A stretch of 38,979 nucleotides of DNA from Kayfunavirus LM33P1. The position numbers and the translations under genes are program-made. Shown here one piece after another: positions 3,206 to 8,982 of this stretch. The notes beneath the pieces were generated by a model. The model had not been told where the DNA came from. It worked only from the letters and a program-made list of their open reading frames with translations, and did no database searches. Each line of letters opens with the position of its first letter. Within the stretch, counting starts at the first letter, position 1. The DNA lies in sequence record OZ035813.1, one strand, 5' to 3'.

Positions 3206-3368
3206 CTACTGTAGTCAAGGACTTTAGGTAACACCTTAAGAGAAGCTCACTTAGGGTCATCCTACTTATTGGTCTATCCTAGTGTCGCCTGACCTACGGT
3301 CCTTGACCTACAGTGGCTGTGGCCTACAGTAGTGACGATGAGTTTTGGACAAAAAGTTTGAGACCACA

Positions 3369-3580
3369 TCTCACACTTCAAGAACCTCAAGTCTCCCCAT
3401 AGGCCCTCTTTCAGTCCAGACCAAAGGCCCTACCCGTTACTGCTCCTTGCAGTCACAGCCAGTCTATCATAAGGTTGGACAGATGGTCAAGACTTAAGGT
3501 CAACGATAGGCTGAGGCTATGGCTTAGGGAAGGACGATAGGTTGGGACTATTGGTCTTCTTTGAGTCTCTATCTGTATAA
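3369..3580 (+). repeat. predicted direct terminal repeat / genome left end (collapsed single copy)
   Basis: begins TCTCACA like the T7 left end and ends GAGTCTCTATCTGTATAACC resembling the end of the T7 terminal repeat; boundaries approximate. Confidence 0.35.
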
Positions 3581-3700
3581 CCATAAGTCACAACCATAGG
3601 TCACAGCCTACCTCTCACAACCATAAGTCATAACCTACAGTCTCACTAACCTACAGTCTCAACCATAAGACACCAACACCTACAGTCATAGACCTACAGT
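3581..3700 (+). repeat. array of short direct repeats (CCATAAGTCA / CCTACAGTC) next to the predicted terminal repeat
   Basis: at least 9 copies of the 8-10 bp motifs within 120 bp; analogous to the CCTAAAG heptamers at the T7 left end. Confidence 0.6.
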
Positions 3701-3790
3701 TAATAGACACAAGGCTATAGACTTAAGGTCTAAGACATGTTAGTCAAAGACTATATCCTCTTACACCATGGGGCCGACGATAGCTTAATC

Positions 3791-3840
3791 AATATTATTT
3801 CAAATTACCTATTGACTATAGGTCCAGACTATGGCCTAAT
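3791..3840 (+). promoter_or_regulatory. candidate host sigma70 early promoter (A1-like) with AT-rich upstream element
   Basis: AT-rich AATATTATTTCAAATTACCT then TTGACT at 3812-3817; -10 weak (CCTAAT at 17-bp spacing or TAATAG). Confidence 0.35.
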
Positions 3841-3951
3841 AGCTTCCGTCAACACGACACGGCAACAACCGGATAGTGAAGACGCCGGTCCGGTCCGGTT
3901 AAGTAGTCAGCCTGTAAGACATACGAACAACAGGCAACCGACAGAAAGTAG

Positions 3952-3981
3952 TTGACAGGCAGTAACGACTTAAAGTAATAT
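3952..3981 (+). promoter_or_regulatory. host sigma70 early promoter (T7 A3-like)
   Basis: TTGACA, 18-bp spacer, TAATAT; downstream GTACCACAT..GAAAC..GCTCTTTAACAATCTGG resembles the T7 A3 leader. Confidence 0.6.
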
Positions 3982-4095
3982 GTACCACATCGAAACAACG
4001 GTGATGACCAACACTGAATGGTCTACCTGAAGTCCTCTGACTGAAGGGAATGCTCTTTAACAATCTGGATAAACTCTTAATGTGCGCCGATAGCG

Positions 4096-4151
4096 ACTAA
4101 CTACAGGGCCTTTGAGTCTACATCTGAAGGCCCTGACTGATAGTCACTAAC
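4096..4151 (+). promoter_or_regulatory. early-region repeated hairpin element (copy 1)
   Basis: contains GGCCCTGACTGATAGTCACTAAC and a 7-bp stem CAGGGCC/GGCCCTG; lies just upstream of the first early ORF. Confidence 0.4.
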
Positions 4152-4158
4152 TTAAAGG

Positions 4159-4413
4159 ATGGACACTATGAAACACTTAAGCACAATCACTAATCGCAAT
4201 GAAGTATTCGTGAACACTAAAGGTTATGCGTGGATTCAGCTTAAAGAGATGACAGGAGCGCGTCACCGTGTGGTAGTGCGCAAGGTATCAAGCAAGCAGT
4301 TCAGCAACTACAGCGTCGATACTGTGCGTATAGACAACGAGACATACCTGATAGACTCGCAGATAACCGTGAGTCCTACAGTGGGCGTCTCAGCTCCTTA
4401 TTTCGCTAACTGA
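4159..4413 (+). CDS. hypothetical early protein, first gene after the host promoters
   Basis: 84-aa ORF about 90 nt downstream of the T7-like leader GCTCTTTAACAATCTGG; no recognisable motif; alternative ATG at 4168. Confidence 0.5.
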   Translation: MDTMKHLSTITNRNEVFVNTKGYAWIQLKEMTGARHRVVVRKVSSKQFSNYSVDTVRIDNETYLIDSQITVSPTVGVSAPYFAN

Positions 4414-4420
4414 GAGTGAT

Positions 4421-4468
4421 TAACTACAGGTCGTTAGACTGATAGCGGCCTGACTGATAGTCACTAAC
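4421..4468 (+). promoter_or_regulatory. early-region repeated hairpin element (copy 2)
   Basis: ACTACAGGTC..GGCCTGACTGATAGTCACTAAC upstream of ocr. Confidence 0.4.
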
Positions 4469-4496
4469 ACATAATTAACTTTGAGAGGATATAACT

Positions 4497-5000
4497 ATGG
4501 AACGTAATGCTAACGCATACTATGAGCTGCTGGCTGCAACCGTTGAGGCATTTATCGAGCGTATTCAGTACGACCACCTGACTCAAGATGACGACTACAG
4601 CGCTGCGCTGCATGAGGTCGTAGACGGTCAGGTTCCACACTATTACCACGAGATTTTTACGGTGATGGCTGCTGATGGTATAGACAACGAGTTCGAAGAC
4701 TCTGGGATGATACCTGAAACCAAGGACGTAACGCGTATCCTACAAGCTCGCATCTATGAGGCACTTTATAACGACGTGTCTAATAGCTTGGATGTAGTCT
4801 GGTTTGAGGATGAAGAGGCAGACGAAGAGGATGAATATTGGGTAGTTGACGCTAAAACAGGCGCAATAATTGTGCAAGCTGTAGCTCTTGAGGTCGCTAC
4901 TGCATGTGCCAAGGTCAACTATGTGATAGGTCGCCACCTTCAGGTGGAAGACATCAATGATAACGTAGTGTTTGACCCTGCTGCTGAGGACTGCGAGTGA
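4497..5000 (+). CDS. ocr: Ocr-like anti-restriction DNA-mimic protein (T7 gp0.3 homolog) with C-terminal extension
   Basis: residues 1-110 align with recalled T7 Ocr ([45 protein letters not shown] versus T7 [45 protein letters not shown]); acidic patch, then about 50 extra residues absent from T7 Ocr. Confidence 0.8.
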   Translation: [167 protein letters not shown]

Positions 5001-5149
5001 TGGTAACTTATGGCCTCTGCCAGCACCACGTCACTAACGCCCGGCTTATGGTCAAGACCGGGCAGTTAGACCACGATTGGGCTATGCGTCTCTTGAAAGT
5101 GGTCTACAGGAGACGCAAGCGTATACACGACAGTTTACACGCTAAGTGA
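5000..5149 (+). CDS. small basic hypothetical protein
   Basis: 49-aa ORF whose ATG overlaps the ocr stop (TGATG); ends just before a repeated hairpin element. Confidence 0.35.
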   Translation: MVTYGLCQHHVTNARLMVKTGQLDHDWAMRLLKVVYRRRKRIHDSLHAK

Positions 5150-5150
5150 C

Positions 5151-5196
5151 AGACTACAGGTCATCAATGCTGGTGGCCTGACTGATAGTCATTAAC
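5151..5196 (+). promoter_or_regulatory. early-region repeated hairpin element (copy 3)
   Basis: GACTACAGGTCA..GGCCTGACTGATAGTCATTAAC upstream of ORF 5213. Confidence 0.4.
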
Positions 5197-5212
5197 AACT
5201 GAGAGGGAAGAT

Positions 5213-5440
5213 ATGAACACAATCACTGGTGCCATAACCAAAGGTTTTCGAGCAATTTTCGGTGAAACGCAAGAAGTATGCACCAATCATAAATTCGTAC
5301 TTTCTTGCGTAGCAGGTGACGAGTTTGACGGGTTCGATAAACTGGTGGTTTGCGACCATTGCGGACAAGAGGCTATCCAACACTCAAACGGTAAATTTGA
5401 ATTAATAGACGATAGCCTTACAGAAGGAGACGGCGAGTAA
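5213..5440 (+). CDS. hypothetical early protein with four-cysteine (zinc-ribbon-like) motif
   Basis: 75 aa; Cys pairs in VCTNHKFVLSC and CDHC; SD GAGAGGGAAG upstream. Confidence 0.5.
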   Translation: MNTITGAITKGFRAIFGETQEVCTNHKFVLSCVAGDEFDGFDKLVVCDHCGQEAIQHSNGKFELIDDSLTEGDGE

Positions 5441-5572
5441 CCTAAATAAACAGGAGAGAACCAAATCATAGCTTGACCATAACACTGACGTGATGGTACT
5501 GAGTGATAGACGAGAGGTCATCGACTGATAGGTGGCCTCAAAGATTACCACTTACATTGATAGGAGTTAACT

Positions 5573-5677
5573 ATGAGCACTGCAATCATCTGGACTATCT
5601 CAGGCTTCGTAGCGTGGGGAATGTTTACTCTAGTCTGCAAACTACCGGTCCTTACTCAACTGTTATGGGGCTTATGA
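5573..5677 (+). CDS. small hydrophobic early peptide
   Basis: 34-aa ORF with SD TAGGAG upstream; TGA overlaps next ATG (ATGA). Confidence 0.3.
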   Translation: MSTAIIWTISGFVAWGMFTLVCKLPVLTQLLWGL

Positions 5678-5877
5678 CTATGAGTATCGCACTATTGATA
5701 GCCATAGGCTATGGACTTATCGCCTACGTGCTGGTGAGAGACATCAACAAAGCGCGTAAAGTCTACAAATTCAAATATGTACGTCTGGGTAGCTGGACTG
5801 TACGTCAACCTAACGGACGATTCATGCGTAACTTAGCGAACGTCTGGGATATAGCAACACTTGGGAGCAAACTGTAA
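5674..5877 (+). CDS. small membrane protein (early)
   Basis: 67 aa with N-terminal TM-like helix SIALLIAIGYGLIAYVLV; translationally coupled to neighbours by ATGA overlaps. Confidence 0.4.
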   Translation: MTMSIALLIAIGYGLIAYVLVRDINKARKVYKFKYVRLGSWTVRQPNGRFMRNLANVWDIATLGSKL

Positions 5878-6203
5878 TGAACAAGTCATACGGGATTAAT
5901 CTGGTACACTCTATGGACGCAGACATGCAAATGTTAAGCCTACTGGCTACCGGGTATCGTCACGGAACGTCAAGTCACTCCGCACGTCAACAGCAGGAGC
6001 GGGACCGGGTACTGCAAGCAAGACTCCGGGCTGAGGGCCATAAGTCCGAACTAATGTGTCTGGTGTATGGTGGACGACCAATCACTGACGATGGTAAACT
6101 TTTAGTCTCAGGCTGGAAGGCGATAGACCAACGGTCAACCATCAAGCACACGACTCATGGTGACTTCAGTCATCTCCACGCTAACCCGCTGATATGCAAG
6201 TAA
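5877..6203 (+). CDS. hypothetical early protein
   Basis: 108-aa ORF at the position where T7 carries the gp0.7 kinase; no kinase motifs seen. Confidence 0.55.
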   Translation: MNKSYGINLVHSMDADMQMLSLLATGYRHGTSSHSARQQQERDRVLQARLRAEGHKSELMCLVYGGRPITDDGKLLVSGWKAIDQRSTIKHTTHGDFSHLHANPLICK

Positions 6204-6208
6204 TTCTG

Positions 6209-6231
6209 ACTTAACTATCACTATAGGACTC
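6209..6231 (+). promoter_or_regulatory. phage RNAP promoter immediately upstream of the RNAP gene
   Basis: ACTTAACTATCACTATAGGACTC; predicted +1 at 6226. Confidence 0.7.
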
Positions 6232-6300
6232 AAGGTCTAAGACTCCAAGTGAAAGACCAAAGAGACTTTAAGTGAAAGACTAATAACAAGGACTTTAAGT

Positions 6301-8982
6301 ATGAGCGTCATCTCTATTGACAAGCACGACTTCTCTGATGTGTCGAACGCCATTGAGCCGTTTAACCTACTGGCTGACCACTACGGGCAAGACATTGCAG
6401 TCAAACAGCTTCAGCTTGAGCACGAGGCATACACTGAAGGCGAGCGACGTTTCATCAAGAACCTTGAGAGACAGACTGAGCGAGGGGAACTGGCAGACAA
6501 TCAGGTCGCCAAGCCTTTGATGCAGACTCTGGTCCCTAAGATTGCGCAAGCCGTCAAGGAGTGGCATGAAGGTCCAGACGGGAAGCTGTCAACCTCTCGT
6601 CCGAGCGTAGCGTTCACCATGTTGAGCACTGAAGAGAAGGCCGTAAAGGTCCGCTCTTTGCGCATCTCCTGCGAGTCTGCTGCGGTTATCATATTGAAGG
6701 TCATACTCTCCAAGCTGGTCAAGCCTGAAGGGATACCGATTACACCGATGGCCTCAGCGATAGGTCGCACACTTGAGGACGAAATCCGCTTCGGTCGCAT
6801 CCGTGACAAGGAGAAAGAGCACTTCAAGAAGGCGATAGCTGATAACCTGAATAAGCGGGCCGGGGCGTCCTACAAGAAAGCCTACATGCAAGCGGTCGAG
6901 GCATCCATGCTGGAGCAAGGCCAACTGGAAGATGCGTGGGGGACTTGGAGTCCGACCGAGGCTGTCCACGTTGGAATCAAGATGCTGGAGATTGTCATCC
7001 AGTCCACACAACTGGTCGAGCTTAAGCGTTACGGTGCTGGCAATGCAGCGGCTGACGTTGAGATGGTCCACCTGTCAGACTTCTGGGTCAAGAAGATGGC
7101 ACAACGAGGATTCAGCCTTGCGGGTATAGCTCCAGTCTACCAGCCTTGCGTCGTTCCACCTAAGCCGTGGACTGGTGTCGTAGGCGGTGGGTACTGGGCC
7201 AAAGGACGCAGACCATTACCACTGATTCGCTTAGGGTCTAAGTCTGCGGTAGCACGCTACGAAGACGTGTATATGCCTGAAGTCTATGACGCTGTGAACA
7301 TCATTCAGAATACACCTTGGAAAGTGAACAAGAAGGTTCTGGAAGTGGTGAACATGGTCGAGAAGCTGAACAACACGCCTATTGATGACATCCCTCAGAT
7401 GGAACCGCTGAAGCCTGAGGACTATGCGGGTGAGACTGAAGAAGAACTCAAGGCATGGAAGAAGGCTGCTGCTGGTATCTATCGCCGCGAGAAGGCCAGA
7501 CAGTCACGAAGATTGTCACTGAGCTTTATCGTCAACCAAGCGAACAAGTTCTCTCAGTTCAAGGCCATCTGGTTCCCGTATAACATGGACTGGCGCGGTC
7601 GCGTCTACGCTGTGCCGATGTTCAACCCTCAGGGTAACGACATGCAAAAGGGTCTTCTGACTCTGGCAGTCGGTAAGCCTATTGGTGCTGATGGTTTCAA
7701 ATGGCTGAAGGTCCACGGTGCAAACTGCGCGGGTGTCGATAAAGTCACCTTCGAGGAGCGTATCAAGTGGGTGGAAGATAACCACGACAACATCATGGCT
7801 GCTGCCAAGGCACCGATGGATAGCATTGAGTGGTGGGGCAAGTTAGACTCTCCGTTCTGCTTCCTAGCGTTCTGCTTCGAGTATGCTGGCGTAATGCACC
7901 ACGGCTTGTCTTACTCCTGCTCGCTGCCGATAGCGTTCGATGGGTCCTGCTCTGGGATTCAGCACTTCAGCGCTATGCTTCGCGACCACATCGGTGGACA
8001 TGCAGTAAACCTGACGCCATCCGGTAAGGTCCAAGACATCTACCGCATCGTGTCTGACCGCATTGAGGAGGAGCTTAAAGTCCTACTGGTTAACGGTACG
8101 GACAACGAGATGGTAACTCACGAGGACAAGAAAACTGGTGAGATTACCGAGCGTCTCAAGCTGGGGACACGAGAGCTTGCCCGTCAGTGGCTGACCTACG
8201 GTATGTCACGAAAGGTCACTAAGCGTTCGGTCATGACTCTGGCCTACGGGTCGAAAGAGTACGGCTTCGCAGACCAAGTTTACGAGGACATCGTGATGCC
8301 AGCGATTGACTCAGGGTCTGGCGCTATGTTCACTGAACCAAGCCAAGCATCTCGCTTCATGGCTAAGATGATTTGGGAAGCTGTGAGTGTGACCGTAGTT
8401 GCTGCGGTTGACGCGATGAAATGGCTTCAGGGTGCTGCCAAGCTGCTTGCTGCTGAAGTGAAGGACAAGAAGACTGGAGAAATCCTGAAGCCTTGTCTTC
8501 CGGTACACTGGGTCACACCTGATGGTTTCCCTGTCTGGCAGGAATACCGCAAGAAGGACACCACTCGTCTGAACCTGATGTTCTTAGGGTCATTCAACCT
8601 TCAGCCTACCGTCAACAAAGGCACGAAGAAAGAGCTGGACAAGCACAAGCAGGAGTCAGGCATTAGCCCGAACTTCGTCCACTCACAAGATGGTAGCCAC
8701 CTCCGCAAGACTGTAGTCCACACGCACCGCAAATATGGCGTGATGTCATTCGCAGTGATTCACGATAGCTTCGGGACCATCCCGGCTGACGCTGAGTATC
8801 TGTTCCGTGGAGTCCGTGAGACGATGGTCGAGACCTACCGCGACAACGATGTGCTGCTTGACTTCTACGAGCAGTTTGAATACCAGCTTCACGAGAGCCA
8901 GAGAGACAAGTTGCCTGAGCTTCCGAAGAAAGGTAAACTGAATATCGAAGACATCTTGTCTTCAGACTTTGCATTCGCTTAA
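6301..8982 (+). CDS. T7-like single-subunit DNA-directed RNA polymerase (gp1)
   Basis: 893 aa; characteristic T7 RNAP sequence throughout (for example PMFNPQGNDMQKGLLTLA, HDSFGT, AFCFEYAGV, C-terminal FAFA). Confidence 0.97.
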   Translation: MSVISIDKHDFSDVSNAIEPFNLLADHYGQDIAVKQLQLEHEAYTEGERRFIKNLERQTERGELADNQVAKPLMQTLVPKIAQAVKEWHEGPDGKLSTSRPSVAFTMLSTEEKAVKVRSLRISCESAAVIILKVILSKLVKPEGIPITPMASAIGRTLEDEIRFGRIRDKEKEHFKKAIADNLNKRAGASYKKAYMQAVEASMLEQGQLEDAWGTWSPTEAVHVGIKMLEIVIQSTQLVELKRYGAGNAAADVEMVHLSDFWVKKMAQRGFSLAGIAPVYQPCVVPPKPWTGVVGGGYWAKGRRPLPLIRLGSKSAVARYEDVYMPEVYDAVNIIQNTPWKVNKKVLEVVNMVEKLNNTPIDDIPQMEPLKPEDYAGETEEELKAWKKAAAGIYRREKARQSRRLSLSFIVNQANKFSQFKAIWFPYNMDWRGRVYAVPMFNPQGNDMQKGLLTLAVGKPIGADGFKWLKVHGANCAGVDKVTFEERIKWVEDNHDNIMAAAKAPMDSIEWWGKLDSPFCFLAFCFEYAGVMHHGLSYSCSLPIAFDGSCSGIQHFSAMLRDHIGGHAVNLTPSGKVQDIYRIVSDRIEEELKVLLVNGTDNEMVTHEDKKTGEITERLKLGTRELARQWLTYGMSRKVTKRSVMTLAYGSKEYGFADQVYEDIVMPAIDSGSGAMFTEPSQASRFMAKMIWEAVSVTVVAAVDAMKWLQGAAKLLAAEVKDKKTGEILKPCLPVHWVTPDGFPVWQEYRKKDTTRLNLMFLGSFNLQPTVNKGTKKELDKHKQESGISPNFVHSQDGSHLRKTVVHTHRKYGVMSFAVIHDSFGTIPADAEYLFRGVRETMVETYRDNDVLLDFYEQFEYQLHESQRDKLPELPKKGKLNIEDILSSDFAFA

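Follow-up and report, generated by a model that had tools for sequence, protein, structure and literature searches.

BOX15_gp02, a small gene ahead of ocr in coliphage LM33_P1: an early accessory cassette bounded by hairpins and a candidate inhibitor of a host factor

Introduction

What is the role of a gene that a T7-like phage would express ahead of, or together with, ocr? The question is raised by BOX15_gp02, a small open reading frame (ORF) located between the early leader and the ocr gene of Kayfunavirus LM33P1 (sequence record OZ035813.1). The window, that is, the whole stretch of 38,979 nucleotides analyzed here, is the LM33_P1 genome in circularly permuted form (window position = record position + 3376), and the 1.6 kb around BOX15_gp02 is 100% identical to Escherichia phage LM33_P1 (Kayfunavirus, K1F-like, 38,979 bp). 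Unless stated otherwise, coordinates are window positions. A first-pass annotation made from the sequence alone had singled out this ORF as an uncharacterised first early gene and a candidate anti-defence or host-takeover factor.

The accessory genes that T7-like phages express first repeatedly inhibit host immunity or key machines, as exemplified by Ocr, S-adenosylmethionine (SAM) lyase and the gp0.7 kinase. LM33_P1 and K1F are phage-therapy models for extraintestinal pathogenic Escherichia coli, and an accessory factor affecting host range or defence evasion would therefore have practical use. We report that BOX15_gp02 is almost certainly a real, early and accessory gene.

Results

A coding sequence of most likely 81 codons

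As read from the ORF list and the sequence, an ATG-to-TGA frame of 84 codons occupies positions 4159-4413 of the + strand. RefSeq LM33_P1 labels it BOX15_gp02, "Phage protein"; the orthologous stretch of the original K1F GenBank record carries no annotation. When the interval between the flanking hairpins was shuffled, an ORF of at least 81 codons arose in 68 of 20000 trials, a chance of 0.3%. Pairwise ratios of nonsynonymous to synonymous substitution rates (dN/dS) among intact Kayfunavirus alleles range from 0.2 to 0.35, pointing to purifying selection. Moreover, the protein is a member of PHROG 10124 (E = 1e-39), with residues 4-84 of the 84-residue form aligned to positions 1-77 of the 77-position profile.

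The ORF proposed in the first-pass annotation is thus present, while its start and its length of 84 amino acids need revision. AAGGA at 4155-4159 is the only Shine-Dalgarno sequence ahead of the gene. In an alignment of three hairpin-to-start regions, ATG 4168 falls in register, and the next two cistrons are preceded by equivalent GAGAGGA and GAGAGGG motifs. Nearly all homologues have a length of 81 amino acids. Because of the Shine-Dalgarno spacing, the length of the homologues and the start of the phrog_10124 match at residue 4, the true start is most likely ATG 4168, which would give a protein of 81 amino acids (MKHLSTITN...), rather than 4159. The coordinates of the gene and of the features around it are collected in Table 1.

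Table 1. Position of BOX15_gp02 and of the surrounding features in the window
Feature	Position	Strand	Evidence
Host sigma-70 early promoter, homologue of T7 A3 (TTGACA 3952, 18 nt, TAATAT 3981)	3952..3981	+	Consensus scan, 10/12 matches; T7 alignment
boxA-like (rrn-type) sequence TGCTCTTTAACAA in the early leader	4051..4063	+	T7 and Kayfunavirus alignments
Hairpin 1, positional and structural homologue of T7 RNase III site R0.3	4091..4149	+	RNA fold -25.6 kcal/mol, z = -5.3; aligns with T7 nt 846-905
19-nt hairpin 3' arm CTGACTGATAGTCACTAAC, copy 1, left boundary of the cassette	4133..4151	+	Exact repeat; indel breakpoint in relatives
Shine-Dalgarno sequence AAGGA	4155-4159	+	Sequence reading; 8 nt before ATG 4168, overlaps/abuts ATG 4159
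BOX15_gp02 coding sequence, 81 amino acids, 'gene 0.2' position of K1F-like phages	4168..4413	+	ORF list, phrog_10124, homologue clusters, dN/dS, AlphaFold; annotated from 4159
BOX15_gp02 stop codon TGA	4411-4413	+	
Hairpin 2, second RNase III-type site, overlapping the BOX15_gp02 stop, between the gene and ocr	4411..4469	+	RNA fold -23.8 kcal/mol, z = -5.1
19-nt hairpin 3' arm CTGACTGATAGTCACTAAC, copy 2, right boundary of the cassette	4450..4468	+	Exact repeat; indel breakpoint
ocr homologue, 167 amino acids, C-terminal extension relative to T7 Ocr	4497..5000	+	PF08684 E = 5e-28; phrog_2568 E = 2e-51
Hairpin 3, ahead of the next early cistron; holds the third 19-nt arm copy (5178-5196)	5145..5193	+	

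The first credible gene of the early operon

Promoters A1-A3 of T7 are followed first by gene 0.3, as had been stated in the first-pass annotation and as the annotated T7 left end confirms. The next ATG after the leader hairpin is that of gene 0.3 in T7 and that of BOX15_gp02 here, so the earlier description of an ORF placed between a conserved leader and ocr is correct: the promoter and leader upstream align with T7, and the gene downstream carries a PF08684 domain. The promoter corresponds to the T7 A3 region, with which it has the string GTACCACAT(C)GAAAC in common (annotated T7 left end against the window), and by analogy with T7 it is expected to be active in the host. Further downstream, T7 and every aligned Kayfunavirus relative have the leader block GCTCTTTAACAATCTGG (4052-4068) in identical form. 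The slightly longer leader sequence TGCTCTTTAACAATCTGG (4051-4068) is likewise identical to T7 and to all aligned Kayfunavirus relatives. Together with the shorter form in Table 1 it presumably matches the boxA antitermination element of the E. coli rrn operons, and this likeness suggests that early transcription may be antiterminated and fast.

The gene for the phage RNA polymerase (RNAP) lies at 6301-8982, and the phage promoter consensus ..aactatCACTATAGG is found nowhere between the genome left end and 6219. BOX15_gp02 therefore has the position of a class I gene, below an A-type sigma-70 promoter, above the RNAP gene and with no phage promoter upstream. This bears out the claim that it is the first early gene read by the host RNAP and that it has no assigned function; its homologues also lie in early regions. 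A site at 3814 (GACTATAGG) was considered as a phage promoter and rejected, as the upstream consensus is not fitted.

Another ORF, 'gp0.1' (3737-3955), would precede BOX15_gp02; it is a manual addition to the record, entered as a homologue of K1F Gp0.1. It was rejected as first gene because it is interrupted by stops or frameshifts in most relatives. Among the ten relatives compared, the frame has an in-frame stop at codon 22 in SD6, ST0223, ECG4 and CR44b and is shifted in Pipis, CRW-SP1 and the Enterobacter phage; even K1F departs from it in the C-terminal frame. The stretch is conserved at the DNA level and overlaps the early promoter region. Since 'gp0.1' is not conserved as a gene, and probably is none, BOX15_gp02 is the first credible coding gene of the early operon.

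RNase III-type hairpins on both sides of the gene

The repeated hairpin consists of a lower stem, an asymmetric internal loop and an upper stem, which is the architecture of T7 ribonuclease III (RNase III) sites. A consensus built from ten copies of this and related phages, plus T7 nt 846-905, comprises 18 pairs, of which seven display compensatory double changes. The structure expected of an RNase III-bounded mRNA is found at both flanks of BOX15_gp02 (z -5.3 and -5.1, with the consensus shared with T7 R0.3), and cleavage at these hairpins would follow by analogy with T7. The first-pass annotation was accurate in placing a copy of the repeated hairpin between the ORF and ocr (4411-4469); in addition to the three hairpins of Table 1, a further copy is located at 5500-5554. 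No known RNA family was detected by Rfam in 3300-6400. The 3' arm CTGACTGATAGTCACTAAC occurs in three exact copies genome-wide (4133, 4450 and 5178), compared with 0.03 expected by chance, and each copy lies ahead of an early cistron.

Gain, loss and reordering of the cassette

A search with the interval 3940-4520, from the A3-type promoter to the start of ocr, returned 258 phage records, in 70 of which at least 80% of the interval was covered. In four relatives, CR44b, Ro45lw, Zappy and CRW-SP1, the ribosome-binding site (RBS) and ATG of ocr follow straight after the same leader and first hairpin. These four phages lack exactly the ORF plus the second hairpin, and the junction falls within the shared 19-nt arm.

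Order is variable as well. In Vec13 (L012, 217-901) the sequence of elements is hairpin, a phrog_9817 gene (92 amino acids), hairpin, BOX15_gp02 homologue, hairpin, ocr; the reverse arrangement is seen in ECG4 (L013, 566-1263), with the phrog_9817 gene downstream of the BOX15_gp02 homologue. In both phages each gene retains its own RBS-spacer, and a hairpin copy is present at every junction. SD6 (L014, 601-846) carries a nonsense allele in which codon 64 is TAG, and the record annotates a product of 66 amino acids; either the gene is dispensable and decaying in this phage, or the sequence contains an error.

On the grounds of the clean absences, the swapped orders and the SD6 nonsense codon, recombination between hairpin repeats appears to add, remove and rearrange the unit of RBS, ORF and hairpin, and the gene appears to be dispensable. 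Judged from these alignments, hairpin-mediated exchange of the cassette is probable. The question of conservation in close relatives, raised by the first-pass annotation, thus has a divided answer: the gene is under purifying selection where it is present, but it is cleanly absent from several phages with the same leader, hairpin and ocr, and it is interrupted in SD6. No description of such hairpin-cassette behaviour in T7-like phages was found in the literature searchable here, although it may be reported elsewhere.

A family shared by three families of virulent phages

Profile searches collected 17 representative clusters at 50% identity and 75 clusters at 90% identity, with 41 clusters of close homologues, and tblastn found the BOX15_gp02 protein in 118 records. 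Distant relatives match PHROG 10124 too. A core of the form LSxI ... RKVxSKxFSNxSVDTVRIxNxxYLIDSQ is conserved across 33-100% identity, with R38, S46 and Y60 invariant, and one subgroup of the family conserves an APYF motif in the C-terminal tail, which is predicted to be disordered. All named members are annotated as "hypothetical".

Kayfunavirus members are phages of E. coli, Enterobacter, Cronobacter and Salmonella, and the hosts of the family also include those of Klebsiella and Lelliottia phages. Relatives down to about 33% identity are found in the early regions of other Autographiviridae, of N4-like Gamaleyavirus and of Phapecoctavirus, that is, in three phage families. In Klebsiella Przondovirus, the homologue comes first among the early genes and precedes those for the kinase and RNAP. 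Ermolevavirus PGT2 and phiKT also carry members, that of PGT2 being located in the early region. In uncultured Autographiviridae of 38-47 kb, the homologue always lies between the left end and the RNAP gene, near ocr (L008) or SAM lyase (L010). In N4-like Gamaleyavirus, the copy belongs to a group of genes that precede those for the RNAP subunits and is situated at about 2.5 kb from the left end; in EC1-UPM it bears the note "gp0.2 protein".

The homologue of Phapecoctavirus phiWec179 is 70% identical and forms a unit of its own between repeated 54-nt elements. Five copies of this element of about 54 nt are present in phiWec179 (L004, 2909-2962, 3248-3301, 3962-4015, 4380-4433 and 4694-4747). 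In each, a GC-rich stem-loop comes after a sigma-70 promoter (TTGACA, 17 nt, TAAGAT-like), and the copies separate small early genes, including the BOX15_gp02 homologue.

No relative was found in 72,556 plasmids, nor in 185,579 species-representative genomes in a scan limited to close relatives. As far as these sequence comparisons reach, the family occurs only in virulent phages. Its coding sequence has moved between unrelated phage lineages, where it is again found in early modules flanked by repeated regulatory elements.

A basic protein with a predicted all-beta fold

With a deep alignment, AlphaFold2 predicted seven beta strands and a disordered C-terminal tail (predicted local distance difference test score 89.8, predicted template modelling score 0.75). 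The protein has an isoelectric point (pI) of 9.7 and a net charge of about +4; the family median pI is 9.4, and 40 of the 45 members have a pI above 8. Its maximum Kyte-Doolittle hydropathy over 19 residues is 0.75 and its grand average of hydropathy (GRAVY) -0.3. BOX15_gp02 is thus predicted to be a soluble, all-beta, basic protein. A note on the orthologue of phage Pipis, by which it would be a membrane protein, was rejected on the basis of the two hydropathy values and the soluble beta-fold model.

Searches of Pfam, NCBIfam, PADLOC and PDB sequences with BOX15_gp02 gave no match. The statement in the first-pass annotation that the protein has no recognisable motif accordingly stands with respect to Pfam and falls with respect to PHROG, given the membership described above. 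A structure search against viral models (BFVD) matched uncharacterised proteins only, including proteins of Acinetobacter podophages. Profile searches and structure prediction, both proposed in the first-pass annotation, have yielded homologues that are all uncharacterised and a confident all-beta model.

Several candidate relationships were examined and rejected. The family profile matched five repeats of a Gram-positive cell-wall amidase with the SH3_5 domain (PF08460) at E = 8.5e-6, but the similarity is confined to one 24-residue hairpin and the hhalign probability is 0.8%. P0047, a relative of 189 amino acids with an extra C-terminal half, provides no functional link: this extra half has no significant family match, the hit to DUF7447 being weak (E = 0.006), and no similarity to the neighbouring gene of the Klebsiella phage. 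JSS1_004 is a homologue of the gp0.7 kinase and unrelated to BOX15_gp02. Membership of the Ocr family of DNA mimics was likewise discarded, as the protein has no PF08684 match, a pI of 9.7 and an all-beta model. Being basic and all-beta, as opposed to the acidic, helical Ocr, BOX15_gp02 cannot be a DNA mimic.

Discussion

Relation to known early genes and mobile cassettes

BOX15_gp02 is a further uncharacterised gene of the T7-type class I accessory kind. Like the class I genes 0.3-0.7 of T7, with their RNase III sites R0.3 and R0.5, the LM33_P1 early region has an A3-type promoter, an identical boxA block and a two-stem, R0.3-like hairpin; by homology, it likewise encodes a small non-essential protein made first from host-RNAP transcripts, and a hairpin precedes each cistron or cistron pair. 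In contrast, T7 has no gene in the BOX15_gp02 slot, and in LM33_P1, unlike T7, the hairpin arms are near-identical repeats that coincide with breakpoints of indels and permutations. In comparisons with the Ocr profile and with PHROG, BOX15_gp02 is unrelated to the Ocr family, and its PHROG matches bring no named function. It shares with ocr its accessory character and its time of expression, which would be the same or earlier; it is the immediate neighbour of ocr here and lies near ocr or SAM lyase in other phages. Ocr, however, is strongly acidic and helical, while BOX15_gp02 is basic, is predicted to be all-beta and has no Pfam match.

A second parallel is offered by the promoter-early stem-loop (PeSL) elements, which reportedly act as mobile regulatory cassettes in T4-type phages. 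In LM33_P1, as with PeSL, repeated stem-loops flank small early accessory genes and coincide with gain, loss and reordering, and the phiWec179 homologue is flanked by repeated units of sigma-70 promoter and stem-loop of that very type. The LM33_P1 repeats differ from PeSL in being RNase III-type processing hairpins inside one operon, without a promoter. The location of the breakpoints in the arms of RNase III-type hairpins hints at a simple way in which T7-type early regions could evolve as modules. No function is attached to PHROG 10124. With the profile searches performed here the family widens to 75 clusters (90% identity), and structural similarity extends it to proteins of Acinetobacter phages. 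What the present analysis adds is the hairpin-bounded cassette behaviour, the distribution across phage families and the lack of a match to a solved structure.

A possible early inhibitor of a host factor

The following sequence of events is proposed. By homology with T7, transcription would start at the A3-type promoter and run through the boxA leader, and the transcript would be cut at the RNase III-type hairpins on either side of BOX15_gp02. These cuts would release a monocistronic mRNA of about 320 nt ending in a stabilising stem, and BOX15_gp02 would be the first protein made, before or together with Ocr. The cassette of RBS, ORF and hairpin would move by recombination between the near-identical hairpin arms. 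In the first minutes of infection, the protein itself may bind a host factor and neutralise it stoichiometrically; in view of the accessory, patchy and mobile distribution of the gene and its ocr and SAM lyase neighbours, this factor would most probably be a component of an anti-phage defence.

As a whole, an early accessory cassette encoding an inhibitor of a host factor, probably of a defence system, is the best explanation we can offer, and we offer it tentatively. BOX15_gp02 is a clean candidate for such a role: it is first in the operon, under purifying selection and dispensable, occurs in three phage families of Enterobacteriaceae and has a confidently predicted fold without known relative. 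An anti-defence function was ranked first because a gene that is first and early, accessory, horizontally shared, often located beside anti-restriction genes and under purifying selection has the typical profile of counter-defence. With regard to anti-defence specifically, the case is one of position and analogy, and on this context we put it forward with reserve.

Several points weigh against this explanation. Adjacency to ocr is not obligatory, as no ocr is found near the Klebsiella, N4-like and Phapecoctavirus copies in the stretches inspected. The T7 class I accessory proteins gp0.4 and gp0.6 target the cell-division protein FtsZ and the cytoskeletal protein MreB, respectively, and not defence systems. 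Since these two proteins hit host machinery, position alone cannot separate anti-defence from takeover. A basic protein such as BOX15_gp02 could equally be a nucleic-acid binder, and both RNase III cleavage and promoter use are taken over from T7 by analogy. Searches of the literature with phage names, 'gp0.2', peptides and accessions found no paper on the BOX15_gp02 family. Additionally, the family is absent from the library of 200 accessory genes screened by Silas et al., and its motifs were not found in the supplements of EVADES, a compilation of 268 anti-defence proteins.

A more far-reaching form of the proposal is that BOX15_gp02 founds a family of anti-defence proteins, or of proteins masking a defence trigger, with a small beta fold not seen before; in several unrelated lineages of virulent coliphages, infection would begin with the synthesis of this protein, and its gene would be spread by RNase III hairpins that double as recombination sites, in analogy to the PeSL of T4. 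We regard this form as doubtful. In one version of it, anti-restriction proteins such as Ocr would be sensed by, or would trigger, a system that BOX15_gp02 neutralises; the position of the gene in front of ocr or SAM lyase would then be accounted for.

Alternative explanations

The foremost alternative is a modulator of host takeover or physiology that binds a housekeeping target in division, cytoskeleton, transcription, replication or RNA decay. Operon position and size class are those of the T7 class I accessory proteins, the strong conservation of core residues agrees with such a role, and a target conserved throughout the Enterobacteriaceae would be in line with the hosts whose phages carry the family (E. 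coli, Klebsiella, Enterobacter, Cronobacter and Lelliottia). The early region of LM33_P1 moreover lacks a gp0.7 kinase, so that other takeover functions may be needed. Nevertheless, the gene is dispensable, judging from its clean presence or absence in near-identical phages and from a natural nonsense allele, and it sits in a hypervariable slot that it has in common with other swappable genes, which is more typical of arms-race genes. We therefore consider a takeover function unlikely.

The basic character of the protein, shared by most of the family members analyzed, and its conserved loop rich in Arg, Lys, Ser and Asn (RKVxSKxFSNxS) would also suit an early protein that binds DNA or RNA, be it the entering genome end, host DNA or the early transcript, and that protects it or modulates transcription or mRNA processing. 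Such a role is improbable in view of the accessory nature of the gene, as the candidate targets, hairpins and leader, are present in every relative.

More improbable still is a part in inter-phage competition or superinfection exclusion, in which the protein would be made first in order to act against co-infecting or resident phages and satellites. Such a part would be in keeping with an early gene that is accessory, horizontally mobile and confined to virulent phages. Many known exclusion proteins, however, act at the envelope, and BOX15_gp02 looks like a soluble, cytoplasmic-type protein with neither a membrane segment (maximum Kyte-Doolittle 0.75) nor a lipoprotein signal. Finally, a fortuitous or decaying ORF between duplicated hairpins is hardly credible: the missing annotation in the original K1F record, the absence from many relatives and the single truncated allele of SD6 could be read in this way, but they are opposed by the dN/dS of 0.2-0.35, the conserved length of 81 amino acids, motifs kept down to about 33% identity across three phage families, a good RBS, a confident fold prediction and the chance of only 0.3% for such an ORF.

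Neighbouring features and further observations

Some records related to this region deserve a remark. Annotation oddities were noticed in LT594300, PV615262 and OR584014. In the original LM33_P1 record, the features of the ocr region include a 'Phage protein kinase'; the RefSeq version shows 'ocr-like anti-restriction' there and names the T7-type RNAP 'N4-like RNA polymerase'. This coliphage region has 95.8% identity with 'Acinetobacter phage vB_Aba_01KA', and the 151-kb 'Pseudomonas phage PsgM04F' contains a 72%-identical copy of BOX15_gp02, as in Phapecoctavirus of E. coli; the host labels of both records may be unreliable.

The physical left end of the genome (TCTCACACTTC..., a T7-like terminal repeat) lies near 3369, and the window is therefore a rotated genome. 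Within the left-end region (3369-3720), an array of short direct repeats with AACCATAAGTCACAACC and CCTACAGT motifs is located at 3579-3700, ahead of the promoters. A perfect phage-type promoter, ttaactatCACTATAGG, is present at 6203-6227, about 75 nt upstream of the RNAP gene, and would let the polymerase amplify the gene that encodes it; at the equivalent position, the annotated T7 record is without a phage promoter.

Downstream of BOX15_gp02, the Ocr homologue is about 50 residues longer at its C terminus than T7 Ocr (117 amino acids), the Pfam ocr domain covering residues 8-94 only. Both short (Vec13, 110 amino acids; CR44b, 114 amino acids) and long forms (Ro45lw, 166 amino acids) occur in relatives. 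An ORF of 50 amino acids (phrog_5058, 4997-5149) follows, apparently coupled translationally to ocr through a TGATG overlap, like gene 0.4 of T7. The next cassette (5213-5440) encodes a protein of 75 amino acids (phrog_32657); neither this match nor that to phrog_5058 brings an assigned function. The 75-residue protein contains two Cys pairs (CxxH...C and CxxC) in a zinc-ribbon-like arrangement.

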